From Stagnimonas sp. (GTDB lineage Bacteria > Pseudomonadota > Gammaproteobacteria > Nevskiales > Nevskiaceae): 32,000 nt of DNA. The notes below the pieces were generated by a model. That model was not told where the DNA came from and searched no databases. It saw only the letters and a program-made list of their open reading frames with translations. Every line of letters starts with the position of its first letter. Within the stretch, counting starts at the first letter, position 1. The stretch spans positions 19,240 to 51,239 of the forward strand of contig JAUSQI010000125.1 of the NCBI GenBank assembly GCA_030652575.1, given 5' to 3'. The position numbers and the translations under genes were made by a program. This document shows positions 5,475-28,229 of the stretch, piece by piece.

Positions 5475-5529
5475 GCGGGCGATCAGCCGTCGGAATTGAC
5501 AAACAAATGTAAATTTTGAGGTGCGAGCA

Positions 5530-7155: not shown

Positions 7156-7164
7156 GAGCACTTA

Positions 7165-7614: not shown

Positions 7615-9026
7615 GCAGAAGATTGGTGCCACCACTTGATCTGGGCTGGCTGCTACTTGAAAGCCGCGATACTCCGAATCACGTCGGCGGACTAATGATT
7701 TTCGAGCTCCCACCGGGAGCACCTCCCAGCTATATGCGCGACCTCACTACCCATCTGCGATCGGTGCAGTCGCTGACAAGCCCTTGGAATCTGCATCTTG
7801 CCGCTGGCGCTGTGGCACGACGCCTACCGCTGCTTGAAAATGAAGGCCAGCCCGATCTCGAATATCACGTCCGGCGGCTGGCGTTGCCGCAGCCGGGCGG
7901 CGAACGTGAACTGGGTGAGCTGGTCTCGCGGTTGCACGCCAATTCACTGGATCTGCGCAGGCCGATGTGGGAGTGCTACGTCATCGAAGGTCTGGAGGAA
8001 AATCGCTTCGCGTTGTTTCTCAAAATTCACCACGTCCTGCTCGATGGGGTCGCTGGCATGCGCATCATCTCGCAGGCACTCTCACCTGATCCTACGGTGA
8101 TCGGTTCGCCACCTTGGGGGCATGTCAGCAAGGCCTCCAAAAAGCACAGGAATCCGAGTCGAGACAGCGCGCCAGAGTCTTCCGAGACCAAATCACAGCA
8201 AATTCTGCCCCGTACAGCGCTGGTCAATCGCCGCGGCCTGCTGCTCAAGTCCATCCGTAATCTGTATCCGCTGATACTCCCAAGGTCACAACGCGTAGCG
8301 AATCTGGTTTCCGCTTTCGCGGCACCACATACCGTCTTGAACGGACGCATTACCGGTCAGCGCCGCGTATCAACCCAGTGCGTGCAGCTGGCAAGACTCA
8401 AACGCATTGCAGATCAAGCCGAAGTATCGGTGAATGATGTAGTGCTCGCATTCTGTGGAGGTGGCCTGCGCCGACTACTGGCCGAAGCCGGTGAATTGCC
8501 CGACAAGGCAACCACCGCCTGCATCCCCATCAACGTGAGGCCCGCTGGAGAAATCAGTGTTGGCACTGCAATCAGTTTCGGGTTTGCGGATCTGGCGACT
8601 GACGAGGCTGATCCACTTGAAAGATTAAAGCGAGTGCATGCATCGACTGCGGCACTCAAAAGGCACATCAGTGCCTTGCCACGGACCACTGTTGGCGCGT
8701 TCACGATGGCGGTGATGGGGCCTTATCTTCTTCAGCAGCTGACCGGACTCGGTGGCCGAACACGTCCCATGTTCAACGTCACCATCTCCAATGTGCCCGG
8801 CCCGCAGCAGGAGCTTTACCTGTTTGGCGCCAAGATGCAGGCCATGTATCCGGCATCGGTGCTCTACCACGGCCAAGCCCTGAACATCACTTGCGTGCGC
8901 TATCACGACAATTTGAATTTTGGCTTCACAGCCTGGCGCGATGCGTTGCCGCATGTTCAGCGCATCGCGGTGTATTGCGGGGAAGCACTGGACGAATTGG
9001 AAGCTGCACTCGGCATTGGGAAGTGA
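7611..9026 (+). CDS. wax ester synthase / acyl-CoA:diacylglycerol acyltransferase (WS/DGAT family)
   Basis: 471 aa with the catalytic HHxxxDG motif (HHVLLDGVAGM), N-terminal PLD..WLL.E....HVGGL, and C-terminal NVPGP...LY..GA motifs typical of WS/DGAT. Confidence 0.9.
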   Translation: MSRRLVPPLDLGWLLLESRDTPNHVGGLMIFELPPGAPPSYMRDLTTHLRSVQSLTSPWNLHLAAGAVARRLPLLENEGQPDLEYHVRRLALPQPGGERELGELVSRLHANSLDLRRPMWECYVIEGLEENRFALFLKIHHVLLDGVAGMRIISQALSPDPTVIGSPPWGHVSKASKKHRNPSRDSAPESSETKSQQILPRTALVNRRGLLLKSIRNLYPLILPRSQRVANLVSAFAAPHTVLNGRITGQRRVSTQCVQLARLKRIADQAEVSVNDVVLAFCGGGLRRLLAEAGELPDKATTACIPINVRPAGEISVGTAISFGFADLATDEADPLERLKRVHASTAALKRHISALPRTTVGAFTMAVMGPYLLQQLTGLGGRTRPMFNVTISNVPGPQQELYLFGAKMQAMYPASVLYHGQALNITCVRYHDNLNFGFTAWRDALPHVQRIAVYCGEALDELEAALGIGK

Positions 9027-9059
9027 TGCTGAGCACTTGCCATCAGTTTGTCCTTTAGT

Positions 9060-11693
9060 TCAGCGCAAATGTTTGGCTTGCACACTTGCCGGCAGAAACT
9101 GGTTCTTGTTCATCGCCGAGTTGAAAATCGGAGCCGGTTCTTCTGAAAGCAGGCGGCTCGCGAAGTAGCGACCATCCTTGAGATCGTAGGTGATGACGGG
9201 GAAGCAGTTTGCCGACTGCACGGCATAGTGCGGCAGAACATGCCCCTCCTGGAACCGCCAGAGACGTCCCTCATGGTCGTAGTTCTCAACCAGAACAACG
9301 TTCCAACTGTCCTCATCAAGATAGAAGACTCTGAGTCCAAAGCTGTGCCTCTTTCCACCACGCTCGGTGGCCTCCACGACCCAGACTCGGTGGCGCTCAT
9401 AACGCACGTTGTCGGGATTGAAAAAGTTCGGCGTGAGTTGCTCTGCGTAGGTCTGGCTGCCGTCGGAGAGTCTGTAGGCGTTGTAGGGCAACATCAGCTC
9501 GCGCTTGCCAATCAGTTTCCAGACGTATCGGTCGAACGGGCCGTTATACATGTCGATCATATCGACGAAATACATCGCCTCGGTACCAGGGAATGGCTGG
9601 TCGTAGCCGACTGGCGGGATACGAAAAAGCTTTGGTGAACCCGGCGGCGCCACCCAGATAGCACGCGCGTCTTTCTCTGAGTTGGCGGTTTCGTGTGCCA
9701 GTGCGAGGAAGTTGGCAAGACCGGCACCAGTGAACTTGAGCAGGTAATAAAGCAGGATGTTCTGCGAGGAGATATCGACGGGGTCATCCGTGTTGCCATA
9801 GCGAAAATAGGCTGTCTCGTTAAGTCGATACTCTTGTGTCACCTTGCCAGTTGCAGTGACCACGGCCTGTCTCGACTGCAGCGCCACCGTGTTGCCCCGG
9901 TAGCGTACGCGGTGGTTCCAAAGCGCCTCTACGCCGTTCTCCGGCTTCGGAAATGGGAACCCCAGTCGTGCGTTTTCAAGCGAGTCGGACCCGACCAACC
10001 GTGCCTTACCGATGTTGGCCTCGGAGCTCTTGGTGATGGCTACCGGATAGGACACGCTGCGATGGGTTTTATAGATTGGCATTCGGTAGTCGGGATACCG
10101 TGCGAACAGCGCCTGATGGCCCTTCGAAAGCAGATTCCGGAATTGATCGACATTTCTCGCGGTGATGGTCTGCGTCGGCCGCTCGATCGAGAATGGATCG
10201 ACAAGCCGCTGTCCGGCCCGGAATGAAGCGGGCAGCCGTGCGGGCGAAATGCCGCCAGACCAGGCCGGGATGCTGCCGTCGGCATTGCCCTCAACTTCAG
10301 CACCGATTGCAGTTAGCGGCCCCGGAGCCCGACGGCGAACGGCAGGCATAGAGCCTGAAGTCTCGGCGGGACCATTGTTTCCTGCGACTCCAGCACTGGC
10401 GATTTCGGTGCGCCCCAGCAACCGCCCACTGAGGCTGACCGACTCATCCAGCACCGCAGGGCCCTGGGCAGCGGCAGCGAGCGCCAGCTCGCGCGCCTGA
10501 CCAGATTCGAGGTAACGAATCCAATCCGATGCCAGCTTCTGCTGGCTTGAAAACCCAGCCGCCTGGCGAAAGGCACTCAATGCGCCATCGACATCCGCCT
10601 GCTGATAGCGCACCAATCCAAGATTGAGCATCAGGGTTCCACTGGGTTTTCCCAGTTGCAGCGCCTGGCTCAGCGCAGCTTCTGCGCGTGCGTAATCGCG
10701 CCGCTCGCGCAGCAGCTGCGCCATCTGTTCATAGATTTCTCGGCTTCCCTGGCTGACGGCAAGCTCCTCAAGCACTTTCAACGCCAGCGTTTTCTCTTTG
10801 GCACGCACCCATAGGGCAGCCAGCAGTTTGCGGTTCTCGGCACTGGGCGGCATCAAACCCTGCTGCATCCAAGCCTGAAGCACCGATCCAGCCTCGAAGG
10901 GGGCACCGATCTGGCCAGTCAACAGCACGAGCCGCTCTCTGTCTTCCACACTGCGCAGATATCCCAGGCGATTGGCGACCTCCATCGTCGCTTGAGCGCG
11001 TTCAGAGTTGCCGGCTTTCAGATACAAAGCTGCAAGCTGCATCCAGGCTTCCTTCCGATTAGGGTCGGTTCGCAGTATGGATTCGAGTTCGGTCGCTGCC
11101 TCACCTTCCCGACCCGATCCCATCAGGGCGGCGATCAGCGCCATGCGCCAGTTGGGATTTGGACGTGGCGTGGCGGCAATTCCCTTTTGAAGCAGTGGCA
11201 CCGCCTCCTTGAATCTGCGTTGTTCCAGATAGGCCGCACCGAGTGCCATATGGACTTCAGGACTCGCCTGCCCCGCTTTCACCAGTGCTTCCAGCTGCGG
11301 TACTTTTTGCTTCAGGTTTCCCGATGCCATTGCCAGCGAGGCCAGGTCCTTGCGCAGCAGCTCGGCTGCTGGCCCGGATAGGACATTGAGGTTTAGCGCC
11401 TGCTGTAACAGATGCTGCGCCTTGGAATAGTCCTTCTGCTCAATAGCCTGGCCAGCCAGTTCTTGAAGTAGTAAGGCACGGCCGTAAGGATCGGTAGTGG
11501 ACTTCAGCAGTGTCTGCGCATCAACTGCCTTTAGTGGAAGCTTGGGGATGTCGATCTCCCGCACCTCGCTCTGGTACTGATCGGCCCTCGTGATGCCGCA
11601 AGGCAAAAGCACCATAGCCAAGGTTGTCAGCACAGCAAGCTTTACGTGCTGACGCGCCAGCAGCGGGCTACCAGTTGTAGGCACAGTCTTCAT
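9060..11693 (-). CDS. fusion protein: N-terminal TPR-repeat module (TtpD-like position in a TonB2-type cluster) + C-terminal DUF1329 (LolA-like) domain
   Basis: 877-aa uninterrupted ORF. Residues 1-~405 are a signal or lipoprotein-like leader plus repeated TPR-like helices. Residues ~406-458 form a Gly/Ala/Ser-rich linker. From residue ~459 the sequence LTAIGAEVEGNADGSIPAWSGG...RYPDYRMPIYKTHRS...GFPFPKPENGVEALWNHRVRYRGN reads as a DUF1329 signature. The start overlaps the tonB end by 26 nt. Confidence 0.8.
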   Translation of the reverse strand: MKTVPTTGSPLLARQHVKLAVLTTLAMVLLPCGITRADQYQSEVREIDIPKLPLKAVDAQTLLKSTTDPYGRALLLQELAGQAIEQKDYSKAQHLLQQALNLNVLSGPAAELLRKDLASLAMASGNLKQKVPQLEALVKAGQASPEVHMALGAAYLEQRRFKEAVPLLQKGIAATPRPNPNWRMALIAALMGSGREGEAATELESILRTDPNRKEAWMQLAALYLKAGNSERAQATMEVANRLGYLRSVEDRERLVLLTGQIGAPFEAGSVLQAWMQQGLMPPSAENRKLLAALWVRAKEKTLALKVLEELAVSQGSREIYEQMAQLLRERRDYARAEAALSQALQLGKPSGTLMLNLGLVRYQQADVDGALSAFRQAAGFSSQQKLASDWIRYLESGQARELALAAAAQGPAVLDESVSLSGRLLGRTEIASAGVAGNNGPAETSGSMPAVRRRAPGPLTAIGAEVEGNADGSIPAWSGGISPARLPASFRAGQRLVDPFSIERPTQTITARNVDQFRNLLSKGHQALFARYPDYRMPIYKTHRSVSYPVAITKSSEANIGKARLVGSDSLENARLGFPFPKPENGVEALWNHRVRYRGNTVALQSRQAVVTATGKVTQEYRLNETAYFRYGNTDDPVDISSQNILLYYLLKFTGAGLANFLALAHETANSEKDARAIWVAPPGSPKLFRIPPVGYDQPFPGTEAMYFVDMIDMYNGPFDRYVWKLIGKRELMLPYNAYRLSDGSQTYAEQLTPNFFNPDNVRYERHRVWVVEATERGGKRHSFGLRVFYLDEDSWNVVLVENYDHEGRLWRFQEGHVLPHYAVQSANCFPVITYDLKDGRYFASRLLSEEPAPIFNSAMNKNQFLPASVQAKHLR

Positions 11694-12405
11694 GGTTCAT
11701 CGGCACGCGCTGCTTAACCTCTGCCGCCTTGCCGGTGGCCGAATACAGCCACTTGGAGATGCTCTGCACCGCAGCAGCCTCGAAGACCCCCTTGGGGTCT
11801 GCATCGAGGATGCGCACGTCCTGAACATGACCGTTCGGCATCACCACGAATAGCGCCTCAACCCAGCCGGAGAGCTTCTGCTTGCAGGCCCACTCAGGCA
11901 TTTGCGGGCGCGCCGTAGAGAGCGGCACAAGGGGCTTCCCCTTCCAACCCCGCCCGCCACTACCCACACCGCCGGCACCGTTGCCATTGCCATTGCCACC
12001 TGCACCGTTTCCGCTGCCAAAACCGGAGAATGCACCACCACCCAGTATCCCCTCGCGAGACCCAAACGCCAGCGGGACATTGATGTTGCTGAGATCGACC
12101 GGGGTCAGGGCGACGCTGGGCGCATCCAGCGGAGGCAAGTCAGGCTGACCGAGTGCTGGTGGGGACGCTGGTGGAGGGGGTGGCGCCTCGTCCAACAGGT
12201 CTGGCGGATTGGGTGGCTCTGCTGGCGGTGGCTGATTGCGTGCGATGCTTACCGCATCAATCACCCTCTGCGCGCCGAGCCCCTCGTCATTTGGCGTGCG
12301 AACGAGCCAGCCCAACGCGAGGAACAACAGTGCCGTCAGCAGGATGCTCAAGGCCGAAAGCAGAAACCAGCGCGTCGAAAGCCTCAGGTGAAGATCGGAT
12401 GGCAT
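11668..12405 (-). CDS. tonB: energy transducer TonB
   Basis: N-terminal TM anchor, a Pro-rich spacer (PPPAEPPNPPDLLDEAPPPPPASPP), and a C-terminal TonB domain (ARPQMPEW...GWVEALFVVMPNGHVQDVRILDA). It also carries an unusual Gly/Asn-rich tract. Confidence 0.85.
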   Translation of the reverse strand: MPSDLHLRLSTRWFLLSALSILLTALLFLALGWLVRTPNDEGLGAQRVIDAVSIARNQPPPAEPPNPPDLLDEAPPPPPASPPALGQPDLPPLDAPSVALTPVDLSNINVPLAFGSREGILGGGAFSGFGSGNGAGGNGNGNGAGGVGSGGRGWKGKPLVPLSTARPQMPEWACKQKLSGWVEALFVVMPNGHVQDVRILDADPKGVFEAAAVQSISKWLYSATGKAAEVKQRVPMNHEDCAYNW

Positions 12406-12408
12406 GGA

Positions 12409-12816
12409 TCAATTAGGCGTTGCCGCTACCGAGACATCAGCGACACCCGCGAGACGCGCCTGATCCATGACTTCCACCATCAGTCCCAGTCTTGCGCTCT
12501 GGTCGCCCTGGATCACCACGGCGGCTTTCGGTTTACCACGACGCAGGCGCTCGATCTCGGTGCGCAGGCGGCGGATATCGACGCGCTCGCGGTTAATCCA
12601 GATCTGGTTCTCGGCGGAGATGGCAACGAAGATGCTGGCGCGGTCTTCTTCTTTCGCCGTCTTGGCGGAGGGTTTGTTGACGCGAATTCCAGATTCCTGA
12701 ACGAAGGCAGCTGCAATGATGAAAAAGATCAGCAAGTTCATGACGAAGTCGAGCATCGGCGCGAGGTCGATGCCGGTTTCCTCATTAACAGGATGATTGC
12801 GGCGAAGTTTCATCAC
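12409..12816 (-). CDS. exbD: biopolymer transport protein ExbD/TolR
   Basis: IDLAPMLDFVMNLLIFFII... followed by a periplasmic domain, 135 aa. The track start is GTG at 12816; the ATG at 12813 is an equally plausible start. Confidence 0.9.
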   Translation of the reverse strand: MMKLRRNHPVNEETGIDLAPMLDFVMNLLIFFIIAAAFVQESGIRVNKPSAKTAKEEDRASIFVAISAENQIWINRERVDIRRLRTEIERLRRGKPKAAVVIQGDQSARLGLMVEVMDQARLAGVADVSVAATPN

Positions 12817-12817
12817 T

Positions 12818-13342
12818 TCAGGCGGGTGGGATCAGGTCGTTGAGGCGCTCAGTTTCACGCTGTACTCGCGACGTGAAGATGTTGCCGAAAAACAATCCGA
12901 TCACGCTGACCACCAGTCCCGCCATGGTGGCAACCATCGCGTGGGAGATGCCATCGGCCATGGCCCTGGTGTCGCCGCCACGTGTGAAAGCCATCGCATC
13001 AAACACCTGCAACATGCCCATCACAGTGCCGAGCAGGCCAAGCAGCGGGGCCATGGGCACCATGACGCGAATCACTGGCAGGCCAGATTCCAATGCCGCT
13101 CGCAACTGTGAAATCAGCGCTAGGCGGATGCGCTGCGCTGCCCATGAGTGACGATCAACGCGACCTCCCCATTCGGCAAGTGCCTCGGCACGCAATCTCG
13201 GATACACCTTTAACAGAAACCATGCGCGCTCCAGGACTACGGTAATCAGCACGCAGCAGGCAAACAATAACCAGCGTGTTACCCAGCCGCCGGAATCGAG
13301 AAACTCATTGAGGGTTTCGTATGGCACAACGATCGGTTCCAT
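12818..13342 (-). CDS. exbB: MotA/TolQ/ExbB proton-channel protein (short ExbB)
   Basis: Three TM segments with LLGLLGTVMGM..F and AMADGISHAMVATMAGL motifs. ATG at 13342 (MEPIVVPYE) is chosen because the track's longer ORF would overlap the upstream gene by 62 nt. Confidence 0.9.
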   Translation of the reverse strand: MEPIVVPYETLNEFLDSGGWVTRWLLFACCVLITVVLERAWFLLKVYPRLRAEALAEWGGRVDRHSWAAQRIRLALISQLRAALESGLPVIRVMVPMAPLLGLLGTVMGMLQVFDAMAFTRGGDTRAMADGISHAMVATMAGLVVSVIGLFFGNIFTSRVQRETERLNDLIPPA

Positions 13343-13349
13343 CAGCAAG

Positions 13350-14699
13350 CTAAGCACTGGATTTCCCCATTGCTTCCAGTTGTCGAGCCAGCAGCCCCGC
13401 AGCCTGCTCATCCAGCACTTGGATGAGTGTTCGTGATCGCGCTGTGATGAAGGTATTTACGAACAGCAGCGGGATGGCGATCATCAATCCGAGAGCCGTG
13501 GCGATCATCGCCCGCGAAATCCCTTCGGCCATCAACTTGGGATCGCTGGCACCAGCCTCGGTGATGACTTGGAAGGTGATGATCATGCCAACCACCGTGC
13601 CAAGCAGCCCCAGCAATGGCCCCGCTGCGACGATCATCCGCAGCAGCGATTGGAACCGTTCGAGTTTGGGGGTTTCTCGCAATACCGCTTCTGACAATCG
13701 CGTCTCCAGAACCTCAGGGTCTTGTCCGGTCGGATCACCCTTGAGGCTGAGAAGCACGCGGCCCAGCGGGTTGTCGTGATTCGGCCTCGTGATGTCGCGC
13801 AATTGATGTCCTACCCTTCGGCCCACCATCACCAGAAAGCCGAACTGCCACGTGGCGACGACTGCACCCAGCACGCCGATTGCGATGATCACATAACCTA
13901 CCTCACCGCCTTGATGGAGACGATCCGCCAGCGTGGGCCGATCGGCGATCAGGCGAAGCAAATCACCTCGCGAGGGATCAACCAGAACGTCGTGCAAACC
14001 CTCAGTGGCTTCGGTGAAGGCCTTTGCCAGTTCGATGCCATCCTCAGGCTGGCGCTCCAAAACCGACAGCTCGCCGGTCTCGGGCTGGAGTATCAGGTGC
14101 CCCTCTGCAGTCAACGCTGAAAATTGACCAATGCGGACGACATCGGTCTGGATTTTTTCACCCAGCACATCCCGCACCGTGGTTCTGAAGCGACTGATAC
14201 GCCCACTTTCAGCGGCCTCCTGAGCATAGAGGAACCACAGGCGCTCGATCTCAGTGATGTTGGGAATTTCGTCTGCTGCGGCGAGTTTATCGAGCAGCGG
14301 CAGGCGAGCGGGAAACTGAGGTGTAGTCAAAGCATGTGCTAGTTGGCCGCGGAACTCGCCGGCGGACTGCGCGATGCCTGCATAGATTTGACCTGTGTCA
14401 CCCACCTGCTCAGCGAGCTGCTTCTTCAGCTGGGCAACTTCCTGCTGACGCGCCGCAAAGCGCGCCTTGACGGCACTCACTCGCGTGTTTGCCGCTCCCA
14501 AGTCTGCCTCCGCCTTGGCGAGCAACGCGGCCTGCTCGTTCTTGTTGCGGAGGAATCGTGCCTCCCGCTCGCCATTCAACTTGCCAGAGGCCTGCGAGGA
14601 CTGCGTGATGTCACGCAGCAGCGCATCCATACCCGACGTCGCCTGGGCCTGAACCTGGCAGCTTGCAGCGAGCAGAGTCGCCAGTAAAAGACGTCTCAT
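13350..14699 (-). CDS. long MotA/TolQ/ExbB-family protein with a large N-terminal periplasmic coiled-coil domain (TtpC-like)
   Basis: 449 aa with a signal peptide, a ~250-aa periplasmic region, and a C-terminal ExbB core (GPLLGLLGTVVGMIITF, LMAEGISRAMIATALGL). Its size and position match TtpC of Vibrio TonB2 clusters. Confidence 0.8.
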   Translation of the reverse strand: MRRLLLATLLAASCQVQAQATSGMDALLRDITQSSQASGKLNGEREARFLRNKNEQAALLAKAEADLGAANTRVSAVKARFAARQQEVAQLKKQLAEQVGDTGQIYAGIAQSAGEFRGQLAHALTTPQFPARLPLLDKLAAADEIPNITEIERLWFLYAQEAAESGRISRFRTTVRDVLGEKIQTDVVRIGQFSALTAEGHLILQPETGELSVLERQPEDGIELAKAFTEATEGLHDVLVDPSRGDLLRLIADRPTLADRLHQGGEVGYVIIAIGVLGAVVATWQFGFLVMVGRRVGHQLRDITRPNHDNPLGRVLLSLKGDPTGQDPEVLETRLSEAVLRETPKLERFQSLLRMIVAAGPLLGLLGTVVGMIITFQVITEAGASDPKLMAEGISRAMIATALGLMIAIPLLFVNTFITARSRTLIQVLDEQAAGLLARQLEAMGKSSA

Positions 14700-15472
14700 G
14701 GTCTCGCACCTGCAGCGAGAATCGGCAAACGCAGCAAATCGGGTGCCGCAGTTTCACGCGCCATTCTCAAACCGAGGCGGATCTGGCTCGCATATTCGTA
14801 AGGCAGCACGGCCCATGTTTTTGAAGAAGAGTCCCAAATACCGCAGCGCTTGCCATCCATCGACAGGTAATAAAGCGCCGCCCTGCCCACGCGCAATACA
14901 TGAACTGTGCGCTCGTCGATCTCCCCCTGCTCGATGCCTATCGAGCGGCCGTATTCGGCTTCAATCTGCCAAGCTTCCAAGGCTTTCTTGAACTTCTCTG
15001 CACGATCGGCAGCTGGATCGGCAATCAGCTTCTTGAGCGCCTGCAATCGCTCACGTCGCTCAATCAACAGGAAAGGCGCGTCTAACGCAATGAACTTTTC
15101 AAGCCCCTGAACCATGCGAGCCAGCAGGGGCGATAGCTCTCGTTCAGTGCGTTCCAGTTCACCCAACTGCCGTTGGAGTCCGGTGCGCTGCGCGTCGAGA
15201 CTGGCGGCCTGCTCCTCAAGCTGCTGCGCGTAGGCCGTGAGCTGCTGGGACTGCCAACTGGCTGACAGGTAGCGCTCAAGAAGAGTACGCGTCTCGCCGT
15301 CGAGCTGATCGATACGCTGCTGCGAAGCTCGCGAAGCTCTGTTCGCCGTCAACGTCTCGTCGATGGCCTTGGATGCCGTGCCTTGCGCAGCTGCAGCAAC
15401 CGCGTATCCCCCCAAGAGCAGGGCAGCCAAAACGCAGTAGAGGTGCGGTTTATGGCCGCGCGATGTGGACAA
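14696..15472 (-). CDS. DUF3450-family periplasmic coiled-coil protein (TtpB-like)
   Basis: 258 aa. TTG start 7 nt after a GAGGAGA RBS, then a signal peptide, a long coiled coil, and a C-terminal RVGRAALYYLSMDG...W motif typical of DUF3450. The stop overlaps the next ATG as ATGA. Confidence 0.75.
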   Translation of the reverse strand: MSTSRGHKPHLYCVLAALLLGGYAVAAAAQGTASKAIDETLTANRASRASQQRIDQLDGETRTLLERYLSASWQSQQLTAYAQQLEEQAASLDAQRTGLQRQLGELERTERELSPLLARMVQGLEKFIALDAPFLLIERRERLQALKKLIADPAADRAEKFKKALEAWQIEAEYGRSIGIEQGEIDERTVHVLRVGRAALYYLSMDGKRCGIWDSSSKTWAVLPYEYASQIRLGLRMARETAAPDLLRLPILAAGARP

Positions 15473-15601
15473 AGCTGTTCTCTCCTCAATGTTTGCGTAC
15501 CGGGGGCGAAGCCATCTGCCGCCCGGTTACACAATGCCTGTGCGCTATTAGCTGCAATCCGCTGAAATCCTCGCAGAGGGCCACGAACACGAATGCAAAT
15601 A

Positions 15602-15623
15602 ATATAGTGCGTAGTGACTATAT
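15602..15623. promoter_or_regulatory. operator-like inverted repeat ATATAGT-N8-ACTATAT in the DUF1302/DUF3450 intergenic region
   Basis: Perfect 7-bp arms read directly from the sequence. They lie within a cluster of (C)ATAGTG motifs. The function is not established. Confidence 0.4.
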
Positions 15624-15681
15624 CTACATTTTCACTCAAATAACAGCCGCCTCTACCCGTCGCGAAGTCACTATGGTAGAG

Positions 15682-18174: not shown

Positions 18175-18253
18175 GATTGGGTGCTGTAGTAAGAGATGGA
18201 GTCGTTGGCCGCCAGCGCAGAGGTTGCCGGCACAAATGTTGTCGCTCCGACGT

Positions 18254-18727
18254 TCAAGGTTGGGTGGCCTCTTCGACAATGACGTTGACACTCTTGATTG
18301 TTGACTTGATGGTCTTGTGGTCACCATCCGCCCAGAACACTTTCAGGGTGTGCGGGCCTGGCTTTGCCGGCAGATCGAAGACGAAGAGGTACCGATCGCC
18401 ACCGAGGCGGATGAGCTGGTCGTTTACCGGCATCAGCGAGATACCTTCGGTCTCGATGTGAAGATGTGTGCCCACCGTAGGCGCACTCATGGTGAGACGA
18501 CGCAGGTCGCCAGGCGTTTCAAAAATCAGGGCCAGCTGGGTCCCAACTCTGGCACCTTCAGTCGGCATCAGGATGCGCAGCGCAGGCACCTCCGTCGGTG
18601 CAGCGCCCTGCCCCGTCGCAGACTTTGCGTGGTGGGCATGATGGTGCTCATGTCCGACCTCTGCGGAGAATGCAGCGAGTGGGAACAGCGCTGAAGTCAA
18701 CAATGCGAACAGGGGTTTGGTATTCAT
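18254..18727 (-). CDS. periplasmic His-rich protein, DUF4399-like (putative metal/copper-binding)
   Basis: ATG at 18727 gives a 157-aa protein with signal peptide MNTKPLFALLTSALFPLAAFSA. This is followed by EVGHEHHHAHH, and then by VGTHLHIE...PGPHTLKVFWADGDHK, which resembles the DUF4399 pattern (GHHHL..D ... pGxHTL...D..H). Confidence 0.55.
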   Translation of the reverse strand: MNTKPLFALLTSALFPLAAFSAEVGHEHHHAHHAKSATGQGAAPTEVPALRILMPTEGARVGTQLALIFETPGDLRRLTMSAPTVGTHLHIETEGISLMPVNDQLIRLGGDRYLFVFDLPAKPGPHTLKVFWADGDHKTIKSTIKSVNVIVEEATQP

Positions 18728-18764
18728 GCGTGAGGTCCTTGTGTAAGGCTGTGGAAAAAGAGGG

Positions 18765-20732
18765 TTAGTGGACGTGATCGTCTGGCGGCGGCTTGAGTTG
18801 TGGCTCGAGGTTGAGCGTTGCGAGCTGGGGGTAGAGTTTTTCAAGCTGGTCCCAACCGTCAGAGTCTGCTTCAGCGATCCAGCGCGCACGCAAGTATCCG
18901 AAGCGATCAATCAGGAACTCGACGTGTTGCCACTCCATGCCGAGACGGTCTGGCATGCCGCGATTTGCAACCGTGCGCGACAACAATTCGTAAGACGACC
19001 AGATCGGTGTGCCGCCCCCTTGGATGACCGTGAATGGCAAACCGGCGGGTATCGGGAGCGCGGTATCGACCACCGCTAGAATGGTCGTGCGCAGACCTGC
19101 CAGCTGGCCTTGTGCCTCCGCCAACTGCATGAGACGTCCTTTGGCTGTAGGCCCTTCAAGAAATACCAGCAAGACATTATGCAAACCTCGATAGCCCTTG
19201 AGTTCCATCGGGCCAGCTGGTTGCTCGATGTAGAAATTCGGCGCGCCTAACCAAGGCTGCTTTGGGGTCACCTGCGGCCGCAGCAGACGCGCTTCGAAGC
19301 CCTGCGAAAAAGTGCGCAGAAAATTGATGACGTCCCAGCGGTCGGTGACAGTCATCACCTTCTCGAATCCAGGCATGCCGCCGGCGGGAATTCCGTGCGT
19401 CAACCACCAGTGCATATCGCCAGCAGTGTGCAGTGCCGTGTGCGGTTCGCTGAGATTGGCCGGCAACCGTGGCAACGATTTTGCGAACGGGCCATCACCC
19501 AAGCCACCGCTACCGTGGCAACCAGTGCAGTGCGCCTCATACAGGGCACGACCTTCGGCGATTGAGACTGTCAGATAAGGTACATCTGAGCGCCGAAAGC
19601 TATCCGGATAGGCAGGCACCGCCAGTGCCCAGCACAACGTCCCAACACTAGCGAGGCCGATGACCCCGCCCAGGATACGCAGTCTGCTGCTGCGCCCCAA
19701 ACCGACCAACAGCGAAGCCACCGTGAGACTGCCGACTGCACCGAGGATCCAAACACGCAGCGCCTTGTCGACCCAAGTGGCATCCCATGACCAGCGAACC
19801 GGCATCCACCAGAAGGCGGTGTCGTGCAGTGCTGGAGTAGTCTGACCAAGCAAGGTAGCGCATCCCAGCATGGCAGCTGCCAACCCCATCTCGATACCGA
19901 CATGCCGCAGCGCCTGAGGTGCGATCTGTAAGGCATCTTCGCCTGAGTGAAGCGCAGGCAGAAAGCGTTGCCGCAACCGGTTGGCAAGCAACAGAACACT
20001 GCCCAACAAGGCGAGCTTCACCAGCAATAATGCCCCGTATCGAGTGCCGAGGAGATCTCCTTCGGTATCAATGTAGTTGTCGGCAAGCAGTAGTCCGCTC
20101 ACGACAATAACCGCCATGAGGCCCGTCGCCAGATGCGAGAAACGCGTCAGTGCATCGGCGAGCCTGGACTGCGATAGCCCGAGGTGGCGATATGAAAATC
20201 GATGCACCGTGATTGCCCATATCGGCAAACCGCCGACCCAGAGCGCAACAGCAATCTGGTGGCTCACATTCAGCAGCAACGCCTCGGCCAGATTCTCGGC
20301 ACCAGCTGCATGTCCTCCCCAAGGTCCAAGACAGATATAGAGCGCTACCAGAGCGGGCAGCAAAGCGATGGCCATGGGGCGGGTCGACTCGTATCGGGTC
20401 AGCACGGCAGCTGGCACCACAAGAAGGGCAACAGCAGCTCGCCACATCCAGACTCGTCCCACGTGAGTATCGAGAATAAATTGGGTCCAGCCGTCAAGCG
20501 TCAGCGCACGTTCACCCAGTGCATTGAACTGGCCTGCCAGAGTGCCGATGTGCAAGAGCAGCAGAAGACCTGAAGGCAGCAGCCAAAAAAGCAGCTCACT
20601 GCGGACATCAGTTCGGGCGGTGTGCGGCCCCAGATCGCGGAGACAGAAATAGCGAAACAGGGTGGTGCCGATGATGACCGACCCGGATATTGCGGCCATC
20701 CACCGGCAGACGCCGGCGACGGCTTCAATCAT
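18765..20732 (-). CDS. copD: CopD-family copper-transport membrane protein fused to a class-I cytochrome c domain and a Cys-less thioredoxin-fold-like C-terminal domain
   Basis: 655 aa. Residues ~1-375 are polytopic and CopD-like. The heme motif CTGCH (nt 19515-19529) is followed by a downstream GGMPGF Met ligand region. Residues ~495-655 have a redoxin-like layout (NVLLVFLEG...ILAVVDT...EFLIDRFGYLR) without a CxxC. Confidence 0.8.
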   Translation of the reverse strand: MIEAVAGVCRWMAAISGSVIIGTTLFRYFCLRDLGPHTARTDVRSELLFWLLPSGLLLLLHIGTLAGQFNALGERALTLDGWTQFILDTHVGRVWMWRAAVALLVVPAAVLTRYESTRPMAIALLPALVALYICLGPWGGHAAGAENLAEALLLNVSHQIAVALWVGGLPIWAITVHRFSYRHLGLSQSRLADALTRFSHLATGLMAVIVVSGLLLADNYIDTEGDLLGTRYGALLLVKLALLGSVLLLANRLRQRFLPALHSGEDALQIAPQALRHVGIEMGLAAAMLGCATLLGQTTPALHDTAFWWMPVRWSWDATWVDKALRVWILGAVGSLTVASLLVGLGRSSRLRILGGVIGLASVGTLCWALAVPAYPDSFRRSDVPYLTVSIAEGRALYEAHCTGCHGSGGLGDGPFAKSLPRLPANLSEPHTALHTAGDMHWWLTHGIPAGGMPGFEKVMTVTDRWDVINFLRTFSQGFEARLLRPQVTPKQPWLGAPNFYIEQPAGPMELKGYRGLHNVLLVFLEGPTAKGRLMQLAEAQGQLAGLRTTILAVVDTALPIPAGLPFTVIQGGGTPIWSSYELLSRTVANRGMPDRLGMEWQHVEFLIDRFGYLRARWIAEADSDGWDQLEKLYPQLATLNLEPQLKPPPDDHVH

Positions 20733-21129
20733 TCACTGCACCTGCTGCCTGGATGCGGAAACCGTAACCGTATTCGACGATGTGACCGTCTACCGAAAGC
20801 ACCTTGTATTTCACGGTGTAACTGCCGTTCGCAAGCGCTGGCAGAGGCACGATCAGACAGCGTGTCTTGGCTCCATCTCTCGCCGGCGGCGGCAGCACTA
20901 CCGCCTTGCCTGCCCCGTCCTCAAGCAGCACTTTGGAAAAGCCCGCCTCGACGTTTTCGTTGAAGCACAGTCGGATCTGCTTTGGTGCGATGCTCAAGAC
21001 TGCGCGTCGCCCGGGTTCCGAACTAATCATGCCGGCATGAGCAGATGCAGCAGTCGGCAGCACCAACAAAAACACAAGTGCTGCCGCCTCTGTGGCGACA
21101 CTGGCCCGCAGCAACGCGCGCGTCGTCAT
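20725..21129 (-). CDS. copC: periplasmic copper-binding protein CopC (Cu(II)-site type)
   Basis: Signal peptide ending ASA|HAGMISSEP, so the mature N-terminus is a His. It has SVDGH near the C-terminus and no Met-rich Cu(I) loop. ATGA overlap with the upstream gene and an 8-nt overlap with copD. Confidence 0.85.
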   Translation of the reverse strand: MTTRALLRASVATEAAALVFLLVLPTAASAHAGMISSEPGRRAVLSIAPKQIRLCFNENVEAGFSKVLLEDGAGKAVVLPPPARDGAKTRCLIVPLPALANGSYTVKYKVLSVDGHIVEYGYGFRIQAAGAVND

Positions 21130-21722
21130 GATGTGCTTTTTGCAGCTTTGCGTGATGTCAAATAATAGGCAAGGCCGGCAAGTCCCAGCGAGAAGATTGC
21201 GGCACCCACGTAACGACCGTAGTGACGAACGCCGACTCGGAACGGGAAAACCGAATGTTCGACCTTGCCAGTTTTTGGGTCGGTCGCCGTGAGGAATCCG
21301 ATATACCAGCCGGAGGCCTCAAAGACGTGATCGAACGTCAGTGTGCCTCGCGGGTAAATGCCGGCAGGCATTTTCACGACCGTCGCCGCATCGATCTCCT
21401 CTGCATTGCCTAAATCCTCGTAACGACCGGCGGCCTTGCGATTCTTCACATCGCGCAGCACCCGAAACTCGACACGCTGCTCACGAAGTGCTGGTGTGAT
21501 GTAGTCGATCACGATGATCGCTCGCCCCAATTCAGGAATGTCTTCGCAGAACTCCTGGGTGGCCCGCACCTCCGGCTGATAGCCGGTGAAGTGGGCACGC
21601 ATGCCGGCAACCTTGAGAATGCAGTTGTCGTCCTCAATAGACACACCGCCGTGTGCCTCTGCCTCAAGTGGCAACAGCAGTATCAAGGTCGCGACGGAAA
21701 ACGCAGTGAGTAGTTTCTTCAT
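21126..21722 (-). CDS. PmoD/AmoD-like periplasmic protein with a C-terminal membrane anchor (putative)
   Basis: ATG at 21722 gives 198 aa. The signal peptide is MKKLLTAFSVATLILLLPLEAEA|HGG. A Cys-x6-Met-x2-His cluster (CILKVAGMRAH) sits near the mature N-terminus. A single C-terminal TM helix (YVGAAIFSLGLAGLAYYL) is followed by a basic tail. The position between pmoB and copCD matches amoD/pmoD. Confidence 0.5.
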   Translation of the reverse strand: MKKLLTAFSVATLILLLPLEAEAHGGVSIEDDNCILKVAGMRAHFTGYQPEVRATQEFCEDIPELGRAIIVIDYITPALREQRVEFRVLRDVKNRKAAGRYEDLGNAEEIDAATVVKMPAGIYPRGTLTFDHVFEASGWYIGFLTATDPKTGKVEHSVFPFRVGVRHYGRYVGAAIFSLGLAGLAYYLTSRKAAKSTS

Positions 21723-21730
21723 CGCAGGGG

Positions 21731-22960
21731 TTATCCGAATACCGGGATCATCGGGCCGCCAAACTCGACCAGATAACGTTTGCCGGTGCCTGTATAAAAG
21801 TGCAGCAGCCCTGCAACAACCGCATCGGGTGAAGCGATCATGGTGGTCATCCGTTCGGTCTCCCACATCGCATCGTCTGCGTAGATCACCAGACGCTTGG
21901 TTTCACCGGGTGCCACGGGGCCGCCCTCCACGCGCAGGGCATCAGGCGCAAGAAGATCATGCTCGTCAAGAGGCTTGACCTTCAGCACAGCCGAGTTGAT
22001 GAAGCGCAGATTTCCCGCAGCGAACTCGCCGACAGTGATTGGCTCATCGCCTCGGTTGGTTACTTCGACCTCAAGACGGAAACTGCGACCAGGAATTCGA
22101 TATCTTGCTTCGATGAGCTTGATGGATACGGGATTGGGCGCACGTTCGATCGCCGGGACATCGACTCGCCCGGTTTGCAGTGGAGTCGTGATCGGGTATT
22201 GCTCCTGTGCATACAGGTAACCACCGGCAATCAATCCGAGTGTCAGCAGCAGAAAGCCACCTGCTATACGGCGATCCCACGTCGTAATCATCTCATCGGC
22301 TCTAGTACCCAACTCCTGCGCGCGTTTGAATCTCGGCACGATGATCGGGCACTTGGTCAGCCAGTAGATGAACCAGGCGAGCCCTACGGAAAACCAGAGT
22401 GCAGACCAGAACACGACATTGGAGAAGCCATACGTTTCAAGATCGATTTTCTTGCCCAGCAACGTGGTTGTGCTGTTCTCAAAGTCCGCAAAGCTGCCGG
22501 TGACCTCAACCCAGATACCAGGGCCGATGATCGGCCCGGTGCCTTTGACGTTGATCACAGGATGGACGTGATAGCGACCTGGCTTGCGAGCCTTCATCGT
22601 CACCTCGAAGTCATAGAGCTCGCCGTAACGAAACGAGGTAGAGCGAATCATCGGAACGCCATTGACACGCGAATCCAGACGCACAAAGGAAGGCCCCGGC
22701 ACCCCGATATTGAGATAGGCAGTGTCTTCGATAGAGTTCACGTGATGAGGCCAATACTTCGAGGGCATGAACTGCCCCTTGATCGTAATGACCTCATTCA
22801 CTGCCAGTTTGGCGGTGGAGACTTGGACATCTAGCCAATGGACCGTGCGCATGCGCAACTGCGGCATCTGCGCGCGTTCACCGTGTGCTACGGCTTCAAG
22901 TGGCAGGAGGCTGATGAAGAACACCAGCGCGGAGATACTCAGAGAAAGAATGGTTTTCAT
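21731..22960 (-). CDS. pmoB: copper membrane monooxygenase subunit B (PmoB/AmoB family)
   Basis: 409 aa, collinear with M. capsulatus PmoB as I recall it. Matching segments are A|HGERAQ...MRTVHWLD, RYHVHPVINVKGTGPIIGPG, two central TM helices, YPITTPLQ, and C-terminal APGETKRL...LIPVFG-like. The CuB ligands (N-terminal His plus HxH) are present. Confidence 0.93.
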   Translation of the reverse strand: MKTILSLSISALVFFISLLPLEAVAHGERAQMPQLRMRTVHWLDVQVSTAKLAVNEVITIKGQFMPSKYWPHHVNSIEDTAYLNIGVPGPSFVRLDSRVNGVPMIRSTSFRYGELYDFEVTMKARKPGRYHVHPVINVKGTGPIIGPGIWVEVTGSFADFENSTTTLLGKKIDLETYGFSNVVFWSALWFSVGLAWFIYWLTKCPIIVPRFKRAQELGTRADEMITTWDRRIAGGFLLLTLGLIAGGYLYAQEQYPITTPLQTGRVDVPAIERAPNPVSIKLIEARYRIPGRSFRLEVEVTNRGDEPITVGEFAAGNLRFINSAVLKVKPLDEHDLLAPDALRVEGGPVAPGETKRLVIYADDAMWETERMTTMIASPDAVVAGLLHFYTGTGKRYLVEFGGPMIPVFG

Positions 22961-22969
22961 GTGAGGGTC

Positions 22970-23737
22970 CTAGACGATCTTGCGAATCCAGATCGCTTTA
23001 GTACCGAGGTACCCGATCCAGAGCCAGAACCAGTAATTGAGGATGTTGAGAAAGCCTGCAAACACTGCCGTGAGTGGCGTTACAGCTTCCCCGAAAGTGC
23101 GAAGCGTGGACTCTTCAATGATCCGAACGTACTCCGGGATTGCTGTACGGATGTATTCGTAGCCCAGCGTGTCTGCGACCGTCAGCATCGTGCCGTGCAT
23201 TTCCACGGGCACTTGAAAGGGCGCGAGCATCGACCAGTTGAGTGGATACAGGAATGCACCGACCGCAAAACCACCAAACAAGCCCGTCCAGAAAAAGCTT
23301 CGGGTCAGCAGCAGCATGCAATCCAGTATCAAGCCCAGTCCGATGTAGGTTGAAGGCCAGACAAAGTTCATCGGAAAGTCGGCGAACAAGTGGAAGTTCA
23401 GATAGCGGCTTATCCAGGCCGCAAAGGTCAGACAAAGAATGGTGAGCGTACCTCCAAGAGGTAGGCGCAGCTTGTCCCACAAGACGTATGAGAAAACGGC
23501 GGGCAACACCGTGATCGCCAAGGGCGTAACCAAGGGCCACCAGCGGCGGTCACGCCAATCCACCCAGTAGTCCCAGTCACCAACCAGCAGTGCGAAGTGA
23601 AAGCTGAAGATGCCGGCGAATAGCAACACCACTAGTGGGATGGCAAGAAGATCCACTTGGATGTAAGCCTTGCGCTGCTCAGCCGATGAGGACATACCTG
23701 ATCTGGTTGCCGATACCGCTTGCGAGCTCTTGCTCAT
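22970..23737 (-). CDS. pmoA: copper membrane monooxygenase subunit A (PmoA/AmoA family)
   Basis: ATG at 23737 (GGAG RBS) gives 255 aa. GDWDYWVDWRDRRWWP, RYLNFHLFADFPMNFVWPS and GYEYIRTAIPEYVRIIEESTLRTFG all closely match PmoA/AmoA conserved blocks. Confidence 0.93.
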   Translation of the reverse strand: MSKSSQAVSATRSGMSSSAEQRKAYIQVDLLAIPLVVLLFAGIFSFHFALLVGDWDYWVDWRDRRWWPLVTPLAITVLPAVFSYVLWDKLRLPLGGTLTILCLTFAAWISRYLNFHLFADFPMNFVWPSTYIGLGLILDCMLLLTRSFFWTGLFGGFAVGAFLYPLNWSMLAPFQVPVEMHGTMLTVADTLGYEYIRTAIPEYVRIIEESTLRTFGEAVTPLTAVFAGFLNILNYWFWLWIGYLGTKAIWIRKIV

Positions 23738-23956
23738 TCTCAACTCCGATTTATGTGGTGCCCGCCGCCCGAGCCTGCTGAGGACGCTCGCTGCACCGTT
23801 TAGTTTTTTTGTGACAAGGCAAACCATGCTGCGAGGAGCGACGCACCGGTTAGGGGCCCGCAACTTCAAATCAATGGCGGATGCTCTTTTTCAAGCTCTC
23901 AGCAGGCCACATGTGGAATCCCTCGTGGCCAGCTGAGAAGACTTGAGGAACCTTCG

Positions 23957-24724
23957 TTACCCAGCAGCCAATACTTTCTGAGGCTCTGCGCTGTCCTCGG
24001 AAACAAGCCGTGTCAGCTCGACGATGCGTGTCAGCAGTTGAACCAGCAAACCGCCCGCTGCAAATGCCGACCACCCCAGCAGAACGAAGCCCCAATGGAT
24101 CGGCGCTGCAAAAAGCTCTTCCGCGTAGAAGAAGGTGTGCCCCCATTCGTTGAGGCCTAAGTTGGGCATGATCATGATCGGCCCAGCAACCAGCAGTGCA
24201 AAAGGCAATGACACCCGGTCGGCGAACTGCGGAAGCCGGGTTCGTGCGTATACGAACGCCGCAACGCCAGACATGATGAACATCGGGATCGCGAAGTAGA
24301 ACAGCACAATGTGGGTCGGTGTGAAATCGGTATCACGGACGGTCACTTGATGCCATGCCGCGTCGGCCTCCGTGAAGGGAGAGGCTGTTAGATAGGCGAT
24401 GCACGCGAACAGCAGAATCTGCGAGAGAAGCACGAAATAGCGGCGCAGCTCTTCCGCCGGCTCCAGCTTGTCCAAGTTGCGATCTCGTGTCACCAGAAGC
24501 CAACCGACAATGCCTGCACCAGCCAGCGCCAGCACCGGCAACTGGATATACAAAAGCCTCATCCAGTACTGCTGAAACTCGGGCGAGAAATAGTCAAGCC
24601 CAACGGTAAAGGCTGTTGCATGCTGATAGACGCGATAGGCCGAAAAAATGATCGCAACCAACGAAAGCAACAGAAAAAAACGCGCCCAAGGTGTCTTGGG
24701 GGAACTATATGCGGCTGTCTTCAT
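23957..24724 (-). CDS. pmoC: copper membrane monooxygenase subunit C (PmoC/AmoC family)
   Basis: ATG at 24724 (GAGGAG RBS 8 nt upstream) gives 255 aa. GLDYFSPEFQQYWM, EADAAWHQVTVRDTDFTPTH and NLGLNEWGHTFFYAEELFAAPIHWG are present. Equivalents of the CuC (D, H, H) and CuD (N, H, H) ligand triads are all present. Confidence 0.93.
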   Translation of the reverse strand: MKTAAYSSPKTPWARFFLLLSLVAIIFSAYRVYQHATAFTVGLDYFSPEFQQYWMRLLYIQLPVLALAGAGIVGWLLVTRDRNLDKLEPAEELRRYFVLLSQILLFACIAYLTASPFTEADAAWHQVTVRDTDFTPTHIVLFYFAIPMFIMSGVAAFVYARTRLPQFADRVSLPFALLVAGPIMIMPNLGLNEWGHTFFYAEELFAAPIHWGFVLLGWSAFAAGGLLVQLLTRIVELTRLVSEDSAEPQKVLAAG

Positions 24725-28195: not shown

Positions 28196-28201
28196 AGCAC
28201 T

Positions 28202-28228
28202 GAGCGGGCTCTCCTCCCCCGCTCTTTT
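28202..28228 (+). terminator. intrinsic terminator candidate 1 (GAGCGGG-9 nt loop-CCCGCTC + TTTT)
   Basis: 7-bp GC-rich stem (28202-28208 / 28218-28224) followed by T4, 7 nt after the aldehyde dehydrogenase stop. Confidence 0.55.
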
Positions 28229-28229
28229 G

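Follow-up and report, generated by a model that had tools for sequence, protein, structure and literature searches.

The window analysed here is a 32,000-nt stretch of the Stagnimonas sp. contig JAUSQI010000125.1 (positions 19,240 to 51,239). Its open reading frames and their translations place 14 genes in series on the minus strand, from pmoC (24724) to a gene for a TPR::DUF1329 protein (9060). The array belongs to a hydrocarbon-catabolic island, and the organism is an uncultured relative of Panacagrimonas within the Nevskiales (Gammaproteobacteria). The best explanation of the array, which has about an even chance of being correct, is that it joins a copper membrane monooxygenase (CuMMO) and its copper genes to a separable envelope block of about 9 kb, in which a DUF1302 outer-membrane barrel would be tethered to a TonB2-type motor. 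The block would assist the CuMMO pathway without being required by the enzyme. This explanation builds on established features of the array: the identities of its genes, their modularity, an order-wide gene fusion, paralogy of the motor, gain and loss of the block as a unit and a separate conserved operator.

The envelope block (unit 2, 18174-9060) comprises a plug-less, porin-like DUF1302 barrel and a second copy of the lineage's TonB2-type motor, in which some 47 residues of flexible linker join TtpD to a complete, LolA-like DUF1329 domain. Its genes, together with the element that precedes the motor genes, are as follows:

15682..18174, minus strand: DUF1302 outer-membrane β-barrel of a Nevskiales subfamily of ~830 aa (Pfam DUF1302, 3.4e-152)
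15607-15628, minus strand: conserved operator-like element TGTAGATATAGTCACTACGCAC, overlapping a sigma-70-like promoter match (15626->15599)
14696..15472, minus strand: TtpB-like DUF3450 protein, whose gene opens the TonB2-type operon (Pfam DUF3450, 1.2e-70), with a TTG start after a GAGGAG ribosome-binding site
13350..14699, minus strand: TtpC-like long MotA/ExbB protein of 449 aa (Pfam MotA_ExbB, 3.9e-29, residues 324-430)
12818..13411, minus strand: ExbB of about 180-197 aa with an ambiguous start codon (Pfam MotA_ExbB, 3.2e-25)
12409..12816, minus strand: ExbD (Pfam ExbD, 1.6e-26)
11668..12405, minus strand: TonB, its spacer rich in Pro and Gly, with TonB_C at the C-terminus (Pfam TonB_C, 3.1e-10; TIGR01352 over its cut-off)
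9060..11693, minus strand: TtpD::DUF1329 fusion of 877 aa (Pfam TPR families and DUF1329, 3e-105)

The two halves of the last gene product are well separated. Its AlphaFold2 (AF2) model shows a signal/transmembrane helix, a TPR solenoid at residues 59-410, a disordered linker at 410-456 and a confident β domain at 457-877. Stand-alone DUF1329 proteins align to residues 458/460-877, which correspond to a complete mature DUF1329, and residues 38-411 match the terminal TPR gene of a Pseudoalteromonas cluster (L135; E 2e-13, 75% coverage). A further match of the TPR half (E 5e-23, 89% coverage) lies in an Aeromonas caviae record, where the gene context is unannotated. By sequence and model the gene is thus a clean head-to-tail fusion of TtpD and DUF1329. 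The Vibrio TonB2 system has the gene order of the window operon, and TtpD is essential to it (PMC6957404). The order that the earlier note had assigned to that system, DUF3450(TtpB)-TtpC-ExbB-ExbD-TonB-TPR(TtpD), agrees both with this description and with the Pseudoalteromonas cluster.

The fusion is not peculiar to the window. A database search recovered more than 120 full-length homologues at 50-99% identity, and the genus-level names among them all belong to the Nevskiales (Panacagrimonas, Solimonas, Hydrocarboniphaga, Nevskia, Fontimonas, Sinimarinibacterium and Stenotrophobium). When one genome of each species was scanned, 80 loci were recovered, and the window proteins were then compared with these loci by tblastn. 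The fusion is full-length in all 80, and DUF3450-TtpC-ExbB-ExbD-TonB lies directly upstream of it in 60 of the 61 loci that extend 6 kb or more upstream. The TtpD::DUF1329 fusion is therefore an order-wide trait of Nevskiales TonB2 operons. The window had been read as a DUF1302/DUF1329 pair split by an inserted motor; this reading does not survive the comparison, since the fusion is order-wide, the operon is complete in those 60 loci and DUF1302 or CopD lies upstream in only 2 of the 80. A megablast of the array against PLSDB gave no match, and hence no sign of a plasmid origin, and the fused TPR::DUF1329 form occurs in no plasmid record.

DUF1329 genes also stand near many of these operons on their own. 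One or two lie within 10 kb downstream of 27 of the 59 unlinked Nevskiales TonB2 operons (for example L021, L024, L029-L031, L036, L041, L046 and L063, at 2-5 kb). The orphan DUF1329 genes of Hydrocarboniphaga and of a Solimonas metagenome-assembled genome (MAG) follow an ABC1/UbiB-type kinase gene, as seen in L029 and L030, and have no DUF1302 gene beside them.

The fusion bears directly on whether the neighbourhood of barrel and motor means anything. The TonB2 paralogue could power ordinary receptors elsewhere, with DUF1302 acting as a passive channel and the two brought together only by the tendency of such islands to collect envelope genes. TonB2-type systems do power classical receptors (PMC6957404), a gene for a TonB-dependent receptor comes next after the canonical Pseudoalteromonas cluster, DUF1302 is missing from the vicinity of most fusion operons, and mobile-element remnants mark the island edge (an integrase-core fragment at 1453-1803 in the window; transposase, integrase and KfrA genes in L002). 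However, the fusion ties the motor to the partner family of DUF1302 regardless of gene neighbourhood, DUF1302 and the TonB2 operon are lost as one unit, extra stand-alone DUF1329 genes lie within 10 kb downstream of those 27 of 59 unlinked operons, and the window holds no TonB-dependent receptor gene. Adjacency without coupling is therefore rather unlikely.

The distribution of the joined form shows how far barrel, motor and CuMMO belong together. In the genome scan, DUF1302 and CopD lie upstream of the fusion operon in only 2 of 80 loci (L007, L008); unlinked operons, with neither gene, include those of Panacagrimonas (L001) and Solimonas aquatica (L006). A metagenome scan with the CopD::cytochrome c protein as query gave 43 loci. 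The joined form, in which the copper module is followed by DUF1302 and then by the TonB2 operon, occurs in L096, L004 and L002/L090/L104 (clade A), in L087, L091 and L007/L008 (clade B) and in L089, whose proteins are 94-100% identical to those of the window. Clade B is more distant, with identities to the window of 77-80% for PmoB, 75-76% for DUF1302, 63% for the fusion protein and about 50% for CopD. The joined order thus recurs on independent contigs, which answers the earlier suggestion of a neighbourhood search: it is not a one-off. It is conserved only in one Panacagrimonas-related clade.

Within this clade the block has also been lost. In PmoB and CopD trees, four loci that carry the CuMMO and copper genes alone (L088, L093-L095) are nested within clade B among linked loci. 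In L007 the fusion gene is followed by convergent genes for a pyrroloquinoline quinone-dependent alcohol dehydrogenase (PQQ-ADH) fused to cytochrome c, a wax-ester synthase/diacylglycerol acyltransferase (WS/DGAT) and OmpA; in L088 the same PQQ-ADH and WS/DGAT genes follow the His-rich gene that ends the copper module. What is left of the fusion gene in L094, at 12144-12186 just before the PQQ-ADH gene, is its final ~13 codons with their stop (…ACTTCCTGCCGGCGACCGT…CTGA; cf. FLPATV…), a deletion scar. The nested unlinked loci, the flank shared by L007 and L088 and the relic together indicate that barrel and motor were lost together, leaving CuMMO and copper genes that survive without the block. 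DUF1302 and the TonB2 operon thus behave as one unit of about 9 kb that has been lost together at least once.

This pattern weighs heavily on a copper role for the block. Methanotrophs take up copper for particulate methane monooxygenase (pMMO) through a TonB-dependent methanobactin receptor, MbnT, and DUF1302, the TonB2 motor and DUF1329 could in the same way form a dedicated, co-transcribed TonB-energised importer of copper or a copper chelate feeding the CuMMO. The block lies directly downstream of pmoD-copC-copD and the His-rich gene on the same strand, across a 79-nt gap with no terminator, and this synteny is conserved in one clade. Nevertheless, loci that have lost the block keep the whole copper module (L088, L093-L095), the fusion operon occurs throughout the order, mostly with no CuMMO linked to it, and the TonB2 genes have a separate conserved operator. 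Experiments and gene contexts tie the DUF1302 and DUF1329 families to the catabolism of hydrophobic substrates, and the translated barrel and fusion proteins showed no His- or Met-rich motif. A copper importer is accordingly very improbable. Nor is the array one dedicated machine: it is composed of two units, its modules are separable and the copper module outlasts the block, so that the interpretation in the earlier note is supported in part.

The motor genes of the block appear to be a second copy under their own control. MAG SAW216 holds one linked operon (L007) and one unlinked operon (L013), whose fusion proteins are 71% identical and whose concatenated motor proteins are 81% identical. 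The linked TonB2 operon is therefore best described as a putative second copy. In the 209-nt gap before it lies the operator-like element listed above, which can be aligned across all linked loci, is a near-perfect palindrome in L087 and has a consensus of about ATGTGCGYATAC-NN-GTATRCGCACAT. The pattern is present in the searched linked loci L004, L089, L096, L087, L091 and L007/L008; as a regular expression it has nine matches in 2.0 Mb, all of them in the DUF1302-DUF3450 gap. It is absent from every unlinked TonB2 operon and from the rest of the window. By eye the element is unlike a Fur box, and no gene for a regulator lies nearby. Neither this element nor the sigma-70-like site that it overlaps had been noticed in the earlier note. 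The start context of DUF3450, with its TTG codon and GAGGAG ribosome-binding site, is conserved as well. The conserved element and the sigma-70-like site before the TonB2 genes argue for separate regulation of these genes from a promoter/operator region of their own.

The junctions of the array, computed from the gene coordinates, are otherwise tight. In the first unit the gaps are 219 nt between pmoC and pmoA, 9 nt between pmoA and pmoB and 8 nt between pmoB and pmoD; pmoD and copC overlap by 4 nt (ATGA), copC and copD overlap by 8 nt, and copD is separated from the His-rich gene by 34 nt. A 79-nt gap (18175-18253) leads from the His-rich gene to DUF1302 and a 209-nt gap (15473-15681) from DUF1302 to DUF3450. 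Thereafter DUF3450 and TtpC overlap by 4 nt, ExbB and ExbD are 1 nt apart, ExbD and TonB 3 nt apart, and TonB overlaps the fusion gene by 26 nt. The TtpC-ExbB overlap depends on the start chosen: it is 62 nt if ExbB begins at the ATG at 13411 but ~8 nt for a shorter ExbB; the shorter form (176-182 aa) is the one called in most related loci. A terminator scan found no site resembling an intrinsic terminator on the minus strand in the 79-nt and 209-nt gaps, and the hairpin 3' of the DUF1302 stop is weak (-14.6 kcal/mol, z -0.8). A strong hairpin after this stop occurs only in L091 among the loci compared: at 15236-15280 a 17-bp GC-rich stem of -46 kcal/mol (z -6.4) follows DUF1302, with no T tract.

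These results uphold what had been said of the 14-gene minus-strand array and its junctions, as well as the statement that the 79-nt gap holds no convincing terminator and the 209-nt gap only a weak hairpin. They do not extend to a single 14-gene transcript, which is not the likeliest arrangement. A single operon was set aside because the 209-nt gap contains the conserved operator and promoter-like site and because the modules also occur apart.

The DUF1302 protein is predicted to be a porin-like barrel. Its AF2 model (pLDDT 83, pTM 0.84) has its best fold matches in the PDB with MOMP, chitoporin, OccAB1 and AlgE, which are 16-18-strand porins and AlgE; it has no plug, and no TonB-dependent transporter is among the fold matches listed. 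The sequence gives no Pfam match to Plug, TonB_dep_Rec or Toluene_X/FadL. The earlier view that this is not a classical plug-and-barrel transporter is thus borne out by model and fold matches. For a stand-alone Pseudomonas DUF1302/DUF1329 pair, AlphaFold-Multimer gave an ipTM of 0.84 and an 18-strand AlgE/Occ-like barrel (PMC13499233), and the window model agrees with this published fold. The ~830-aa subfamily is found throughout the Nevskiales. It has four invariant Cys pairs and, at residues ~690-725, an invariant loop of low AF2 confidence, SAGADGSGADGSRLACSTNPxC…DGLRFNP.

DUF1302 modules recur beside Nevskiales CuMMOs, in three arrangements that include that of the window, and beside genes of aldehyde and acyl-CoA metabolism. 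In Sinimarinibacterium (L132), an orthologue with 71% identity stands in the order MMPL-DUF1329-DUF1302-BNR, 7 kb from a CuMMO with a copper module. In L136, where the orthologue is 60% identical, an MMPL gene diverges from DUF1329-DUF1302-BNR-MerR-pmoCAB-pmoD. Flagellatimonas (L137) has DUF1329 and DUF1302 followed by genes for aldehyde dehydrogenase, acyl-CoA synthetase and a short-chain dehydrogenase/reductase (SDR), with no CuMMO. The 32-kb window contains no stand-alone DUF1329, MMPL or BNR gene; its only DUF1329 forms the C-terminus of the fused TtpD, encoded six genes further downstream than DUF1302. The L136 locus (7306-16786) further shows MerR directly upstream of pmoC, a divergent TetR gene, a gene for a FadL/TodX channel and multicopper oxidase genes, and it has neither copCD nor the His-rich gene.

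Taken together, these observations suggest how the block might work. The DUF1329 domain would dock to DUF1302 at the periplasmic side of the barrel, in the manner predicted for the Pseudomonas stand-alone pair, and the TPR half would bind the ExbB/ExbD/TtpC/TonB complex. The barrel would thus be tethered to a motor driven by the proton-motive force, which could gate it or extract a hydrophobic cargo, either an alkane or one of the alcohol, aldehyde or ester intermediates of the island. In this clade the Ton motor would in this way take the place of the MMPL/RND pump and the BNR protein that stand beside orthologous DUF1302/DUF1329 pairs. A hydrophobic cargo is favoured over copper because the copper module is kept after block loss, because the families are tied to esters, alcohols and hydrocarbons, and because the island encodes alcohol, aldehyde and acyl-CoA steps together with a wax-ester synthase. 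Copper is the less likely cargo, and nothing points to it.

The same neighbours could speak for traffic in the other direction. DUF1302 and DUF1329 might serve export, tolerance or outer-membrane maintenance, handling toxic alcohols or aldehydes, wax esters or an outer-membrane lipid, with the Ton motor replacing an RND pump. DUF1302, DUF1329, BNR and RND genes are cofit, from which Price et al. proposed export of a cell-wall component (bioRxiv 10.1101/072470). Orthologues adjoin MMPL/RND transporters in L132 and L136, a WS/DGAT wax-ester synthase gene adjoins the block, and in the monoterpene metabolism of Castellaniella these families go together with an RND efflux system (PMC6394551). Ton systems, however, are known for import and not for export. 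Moreover, P. putida fitness data tie the DUF1302/DUF1329 family to Tween 20 and butyl stearate, and the mutants' lack of growth on fatty esters is explained no less well by uptake or utilisation (bioRxiv 10.1101/2020.07.04.188060). An outward role is distinctly unlikely.

Several points weigh against the tethered, CuMMO-assisting block. DUF1302 lies within 10 kb of the fusion operon in only 5 of the 80 genome loci, and nearly all others are without it. Conversely, a CuMMO with its copper module occurs without the block in the sister subclade of L088 and L093-L095 and in more distant loci, which makes the block accessory and not integral. The second-copy argument rests on MAG binning. In a motor tree (neighbour-joining bootstraps on concatenated DUF3450, TtpC, ExbB and ExbD), the linked copies are not monophyletic (0/300 bootstraps), although all fall within a Panacagrimonas-type clade. 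A single co-evolving origin of the linked motor with the CuMMO is for this reason not claimed. Unlinked Panacagrimonas motor copies group with L087 and L091/L007/L008 (94%), and the linked motors may have arisen by repeated duplication, conversion or transfer. The short mature N-terminus of DUF1302 is alike in linked and unlinked orthologues and carries no lineage-specific TonB box; this comparison would neither favour nor disfavour a TonB box on DUF1302. The fusion operon probably also powers ordinary TonB-dependent receptors, by analogy with Vibrio. Action of the Ton motor on DUF1302 is a proposal, and the sequence is compatible with uptake or export and with more than one cargo.

The CuMMO-DUF1302 and TonB2-DUF1329 links are both real; TonB-energised import for the CuMMO is an inference. 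A bolder form of the tethered-block explanation would make the Nevskiales TonB2 motor, coupled through TtpD::DUF1329 to plug-less DUF1302 barrels, a new class of Ton-dependent transport without plug or TonB box. The dedicated second copy of the window clade would then import a hydrophobic substrate of the CuMMO pathway in place of MMPL and BNR. In this strong form the proposal is unlikely.

The CuMMO and copper genes that precede the block form a unit of their own (pmoCAB-pmoD-copC-copD::cyt c-His-rich gene), which recurs in about 40 loci. In metagenome loci with enough sequence, copC, copD::cyt c and the His-rich gene occur together, with pmoCAB-pmoD nearby, in several orders. Unit 1 (24724-18254) would be a hydrocarbon-type CuMMO with a copper-delivery set, for which the gene context suggests an alkane substrate. 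Families were assigned with Pfam, NCBIfam and phmmer against the PDB:

23957..24724, minus strand: pmoC/xmoC, CuMMO subunit C (Pfam AmoC, 3.3e-84)
22970..23737, minus strand: pmoA/xmoA, CuMMO subunit A (Pfam AMO, 2e-77)
21731..22960, minus strand: pmoB/xmoB, CuMMO subunit B (Pfam Monooxygenase_B, 1.2e-124)
21126..21722, minus strand: pmoD homologue, a periplasmic domain followed by a C-terminal transmembrane helix (phmmer against PDB 6CPD, PmoD, E 1.2e-16, residues 34-164)
20725..21129, minus strand: copC, periplasmic copper-binding protein (Pfam CopC, 1.1e-19)
18765..20732, minus strand: copD fused to cytochrome c and a C-terminal domain of ~180 aa, 655 aa in total (Pfam CopD, 6e-17, residues 193-295; Cytochrom_C, 1e-12, residues 391-474)
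18254..18730, minus strand: small secreted His-rich protein of 158 aa, whose gene ends the copper module; HEHHHAHH comes immediately behind the signal peptide

The CuMMO subunit genes stand in C-A-B order and each matches its own family model. Against NCBIfam, PmoB exceeds the cut-off of AmoB_BACT (518 bits) and PmoA falls slightly under that of AmoA_BACT (270 bits against 290). PmoB homologues with 64-80% identity bear the names Panacagrimonas, Sinimarinibacterium, Nevskia or Nevskiales. The cultured Panacagrimonas perspica DSM 26377 encodes a PmoB of 69% identity and also has a fusion operon (L011). The PmoC translation contains NEWGHTFFYAEELFAAPIHW, also given as EWGHTF...PIHW, which we take to be the Asp/His/His metal-site motif of pMMO. 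PmoB has HGE at its mature N-terminus and an HVH motif; by the same comparison with pMMO, its N-terminal His and HxH, together with the D/H/H of PmoC, are presumably metal ligands. The pmoD homologue has no Pfam or NCBIfam match, and NCBIfam has no family for PmoD, the His-rich protein or DUF1302.

The CopD::cyt c architecture is kept in the 43 metagenome loci. Its C-terminal domain of ~180 aa matches no family; its only PDB hits are weak and non-significant ones to peroxiredoxin/thioredoxin folds (E 0.3), and it has no catalytic Cys. The His-rich gene follows copD::cyt c in nearly all related loci, and its product is probably a periplasmic copper-binding protein. PDB matches to it are His-tag artefacts. 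Among the family labels proposed earlier for the array, all were recovered by the Pfam scan apart from DUF4399 for this protein, which is not established (E 0.004, 17.8 bits against a cut-off of 28).

The flanks of the array complete the island. On one side lie genes for OmpA, a GMC oxidoreductase, DUF6122 and WS/DGAT (4269-9026); on the other, divergent from pmoC, are genes for an acyl-CoA synthetase, an aldehyde dehydrogenase, a thiolase-like protein, a MaoC-type hydratase and an SDR (25023-31222). Surroundings of alcohol and aldehyde dehydrogenases, acyl-CoA synthetase, wax-ester synthase and β-oxidation genes suggest substrates longer than the usual C1-C4 range of CuMMOs. A P450 with a ferredoxin is also present in L088 (15130-20809), beside PQQ alcohol dehydrogenase and WS/DGAT-type genes. 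At the left edge of the window lies the integrase-core (rve) fragment (1453-1803, plus strand), and in the close relative L002 transposase, phage-integrase and KfrA genes (20044-22628) are found past the same hydrolase gene. The island is possibly mobile, or was so in the past.

The significance of the array lies less in its whole than in the fusion. As a whole it is modular and ordinary, in that the CuMMO does not depend on the block. The fusion joins two widespread and unexplained components: TtpD, which is essential for TonB2, and DUF1329, the partner of DUF1302, with mutant phenotypes on hydrophobic esters. By Rosetta-stone reasoning, its presence throughout the order argues for joint action of Ton motors and DUF1302/DUF1329 outer-membrane complexes, and it hints at a new way to power outer-membrane traffic. 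If this is true, Ton-dependent transport would extend past plug-and-barrel receptors and would include an energised route for hydrophobic substrates. The repeated recruitment of DUF1302 modules by Nevskiales CuMMOs in alkane-type islands also provides a handle on how non-methanotroph CuMMOs acquire their substrates.

Each part on its own is of a familiar kind, be it the CuMMO with pmoD and copCD, the TonB2-type system or the DUF1302/DUF1329 module. In the literature searched, no paper connects DUF1302 or DUF1329 with TonB, and the TtpD::DUF1329 architecture, its order-wide presence and the CuMMO-DUF1302-TonB2 arrangement are not described there. The array is real and no describing paper was found, in keeping with the opinion of the earlier note that its composition was undescribed. 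Ton-driven transport through a plug-less barrel would be categorically new; it is possible and unproven.

A comparison with the systems from which these parts are known is instructive. The window shares the pmoCAB, pmoD, copCD order of proteobacterial amoCAB/pmoCAB operons with amoD/pmoD and copCD. In contrast to these, its CopD continues into a cytochrome c domain and a further domain at the C-terminus, a gene for a His-rich protein is appended, and the context points to oxidation of a hydrocarbon and not of methane or ammonia.

AupA/AupB, AlkL and FadL have in common with the block a proposed role in moving hydrophobic substrates across the outer membrane. The kinship goes no further: AupA is a FadL-family protein with a FadL-type domain (PMC5989066) and the window protein is a DUF1302, so that the family analogy once drawn to AupA/AupB does not hold. 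FadL-type transport needs no energy source, and a FadL/TodX gene stands beside the CuMMO in L136 and is absent from the window. With classical TonB-dependent transporters, including MbnT, the block shares the idea of outer-membrane import driven by the proton-motive force in the service of a copper monooxygenase. Those transporters have 22 strands, an N-terminal plug and a TonB box, whereas DUF1302 has ~18 strands, is closest to AlgE, Occ and MOMP, and is plug-less; the window contains no mbn genes.

The Vibrio TonB2 system is the nearest relative of the motor, with the same families in the same order (DUF3450, long MotA/ExbB, ExbB, ExbD, TonB and a terminal TPR protein). The window system differs in that its TtpD bears a whole C-terminal DUF1329, in having a different conserved palindrome with no evident Fur-box-like element, and in that its operon is preceded by a DUF1302 barrel within a hydrocarbon island, with no receptor gene nearby. 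For the barrel, the nearest relative is the DUF1302/DUF1329/BNR/RND(MMPL) cluster of Shewanella, Pseudomonas and Kangiella (PP_0765/0766 in P. putida). This cluster shares both the DUF1302 barrel and the LolA-like DUF1329 domain with the window and is associated with the catabolism of hydrophobic compounds, and L132 and L136 carry orthologues in exactly this cluster beside a CuMMO. The window, by contrast, dispenses with stand-alone DUF1329, MMPL and BNR genes and has a Ton motor in the place of the RND pump.

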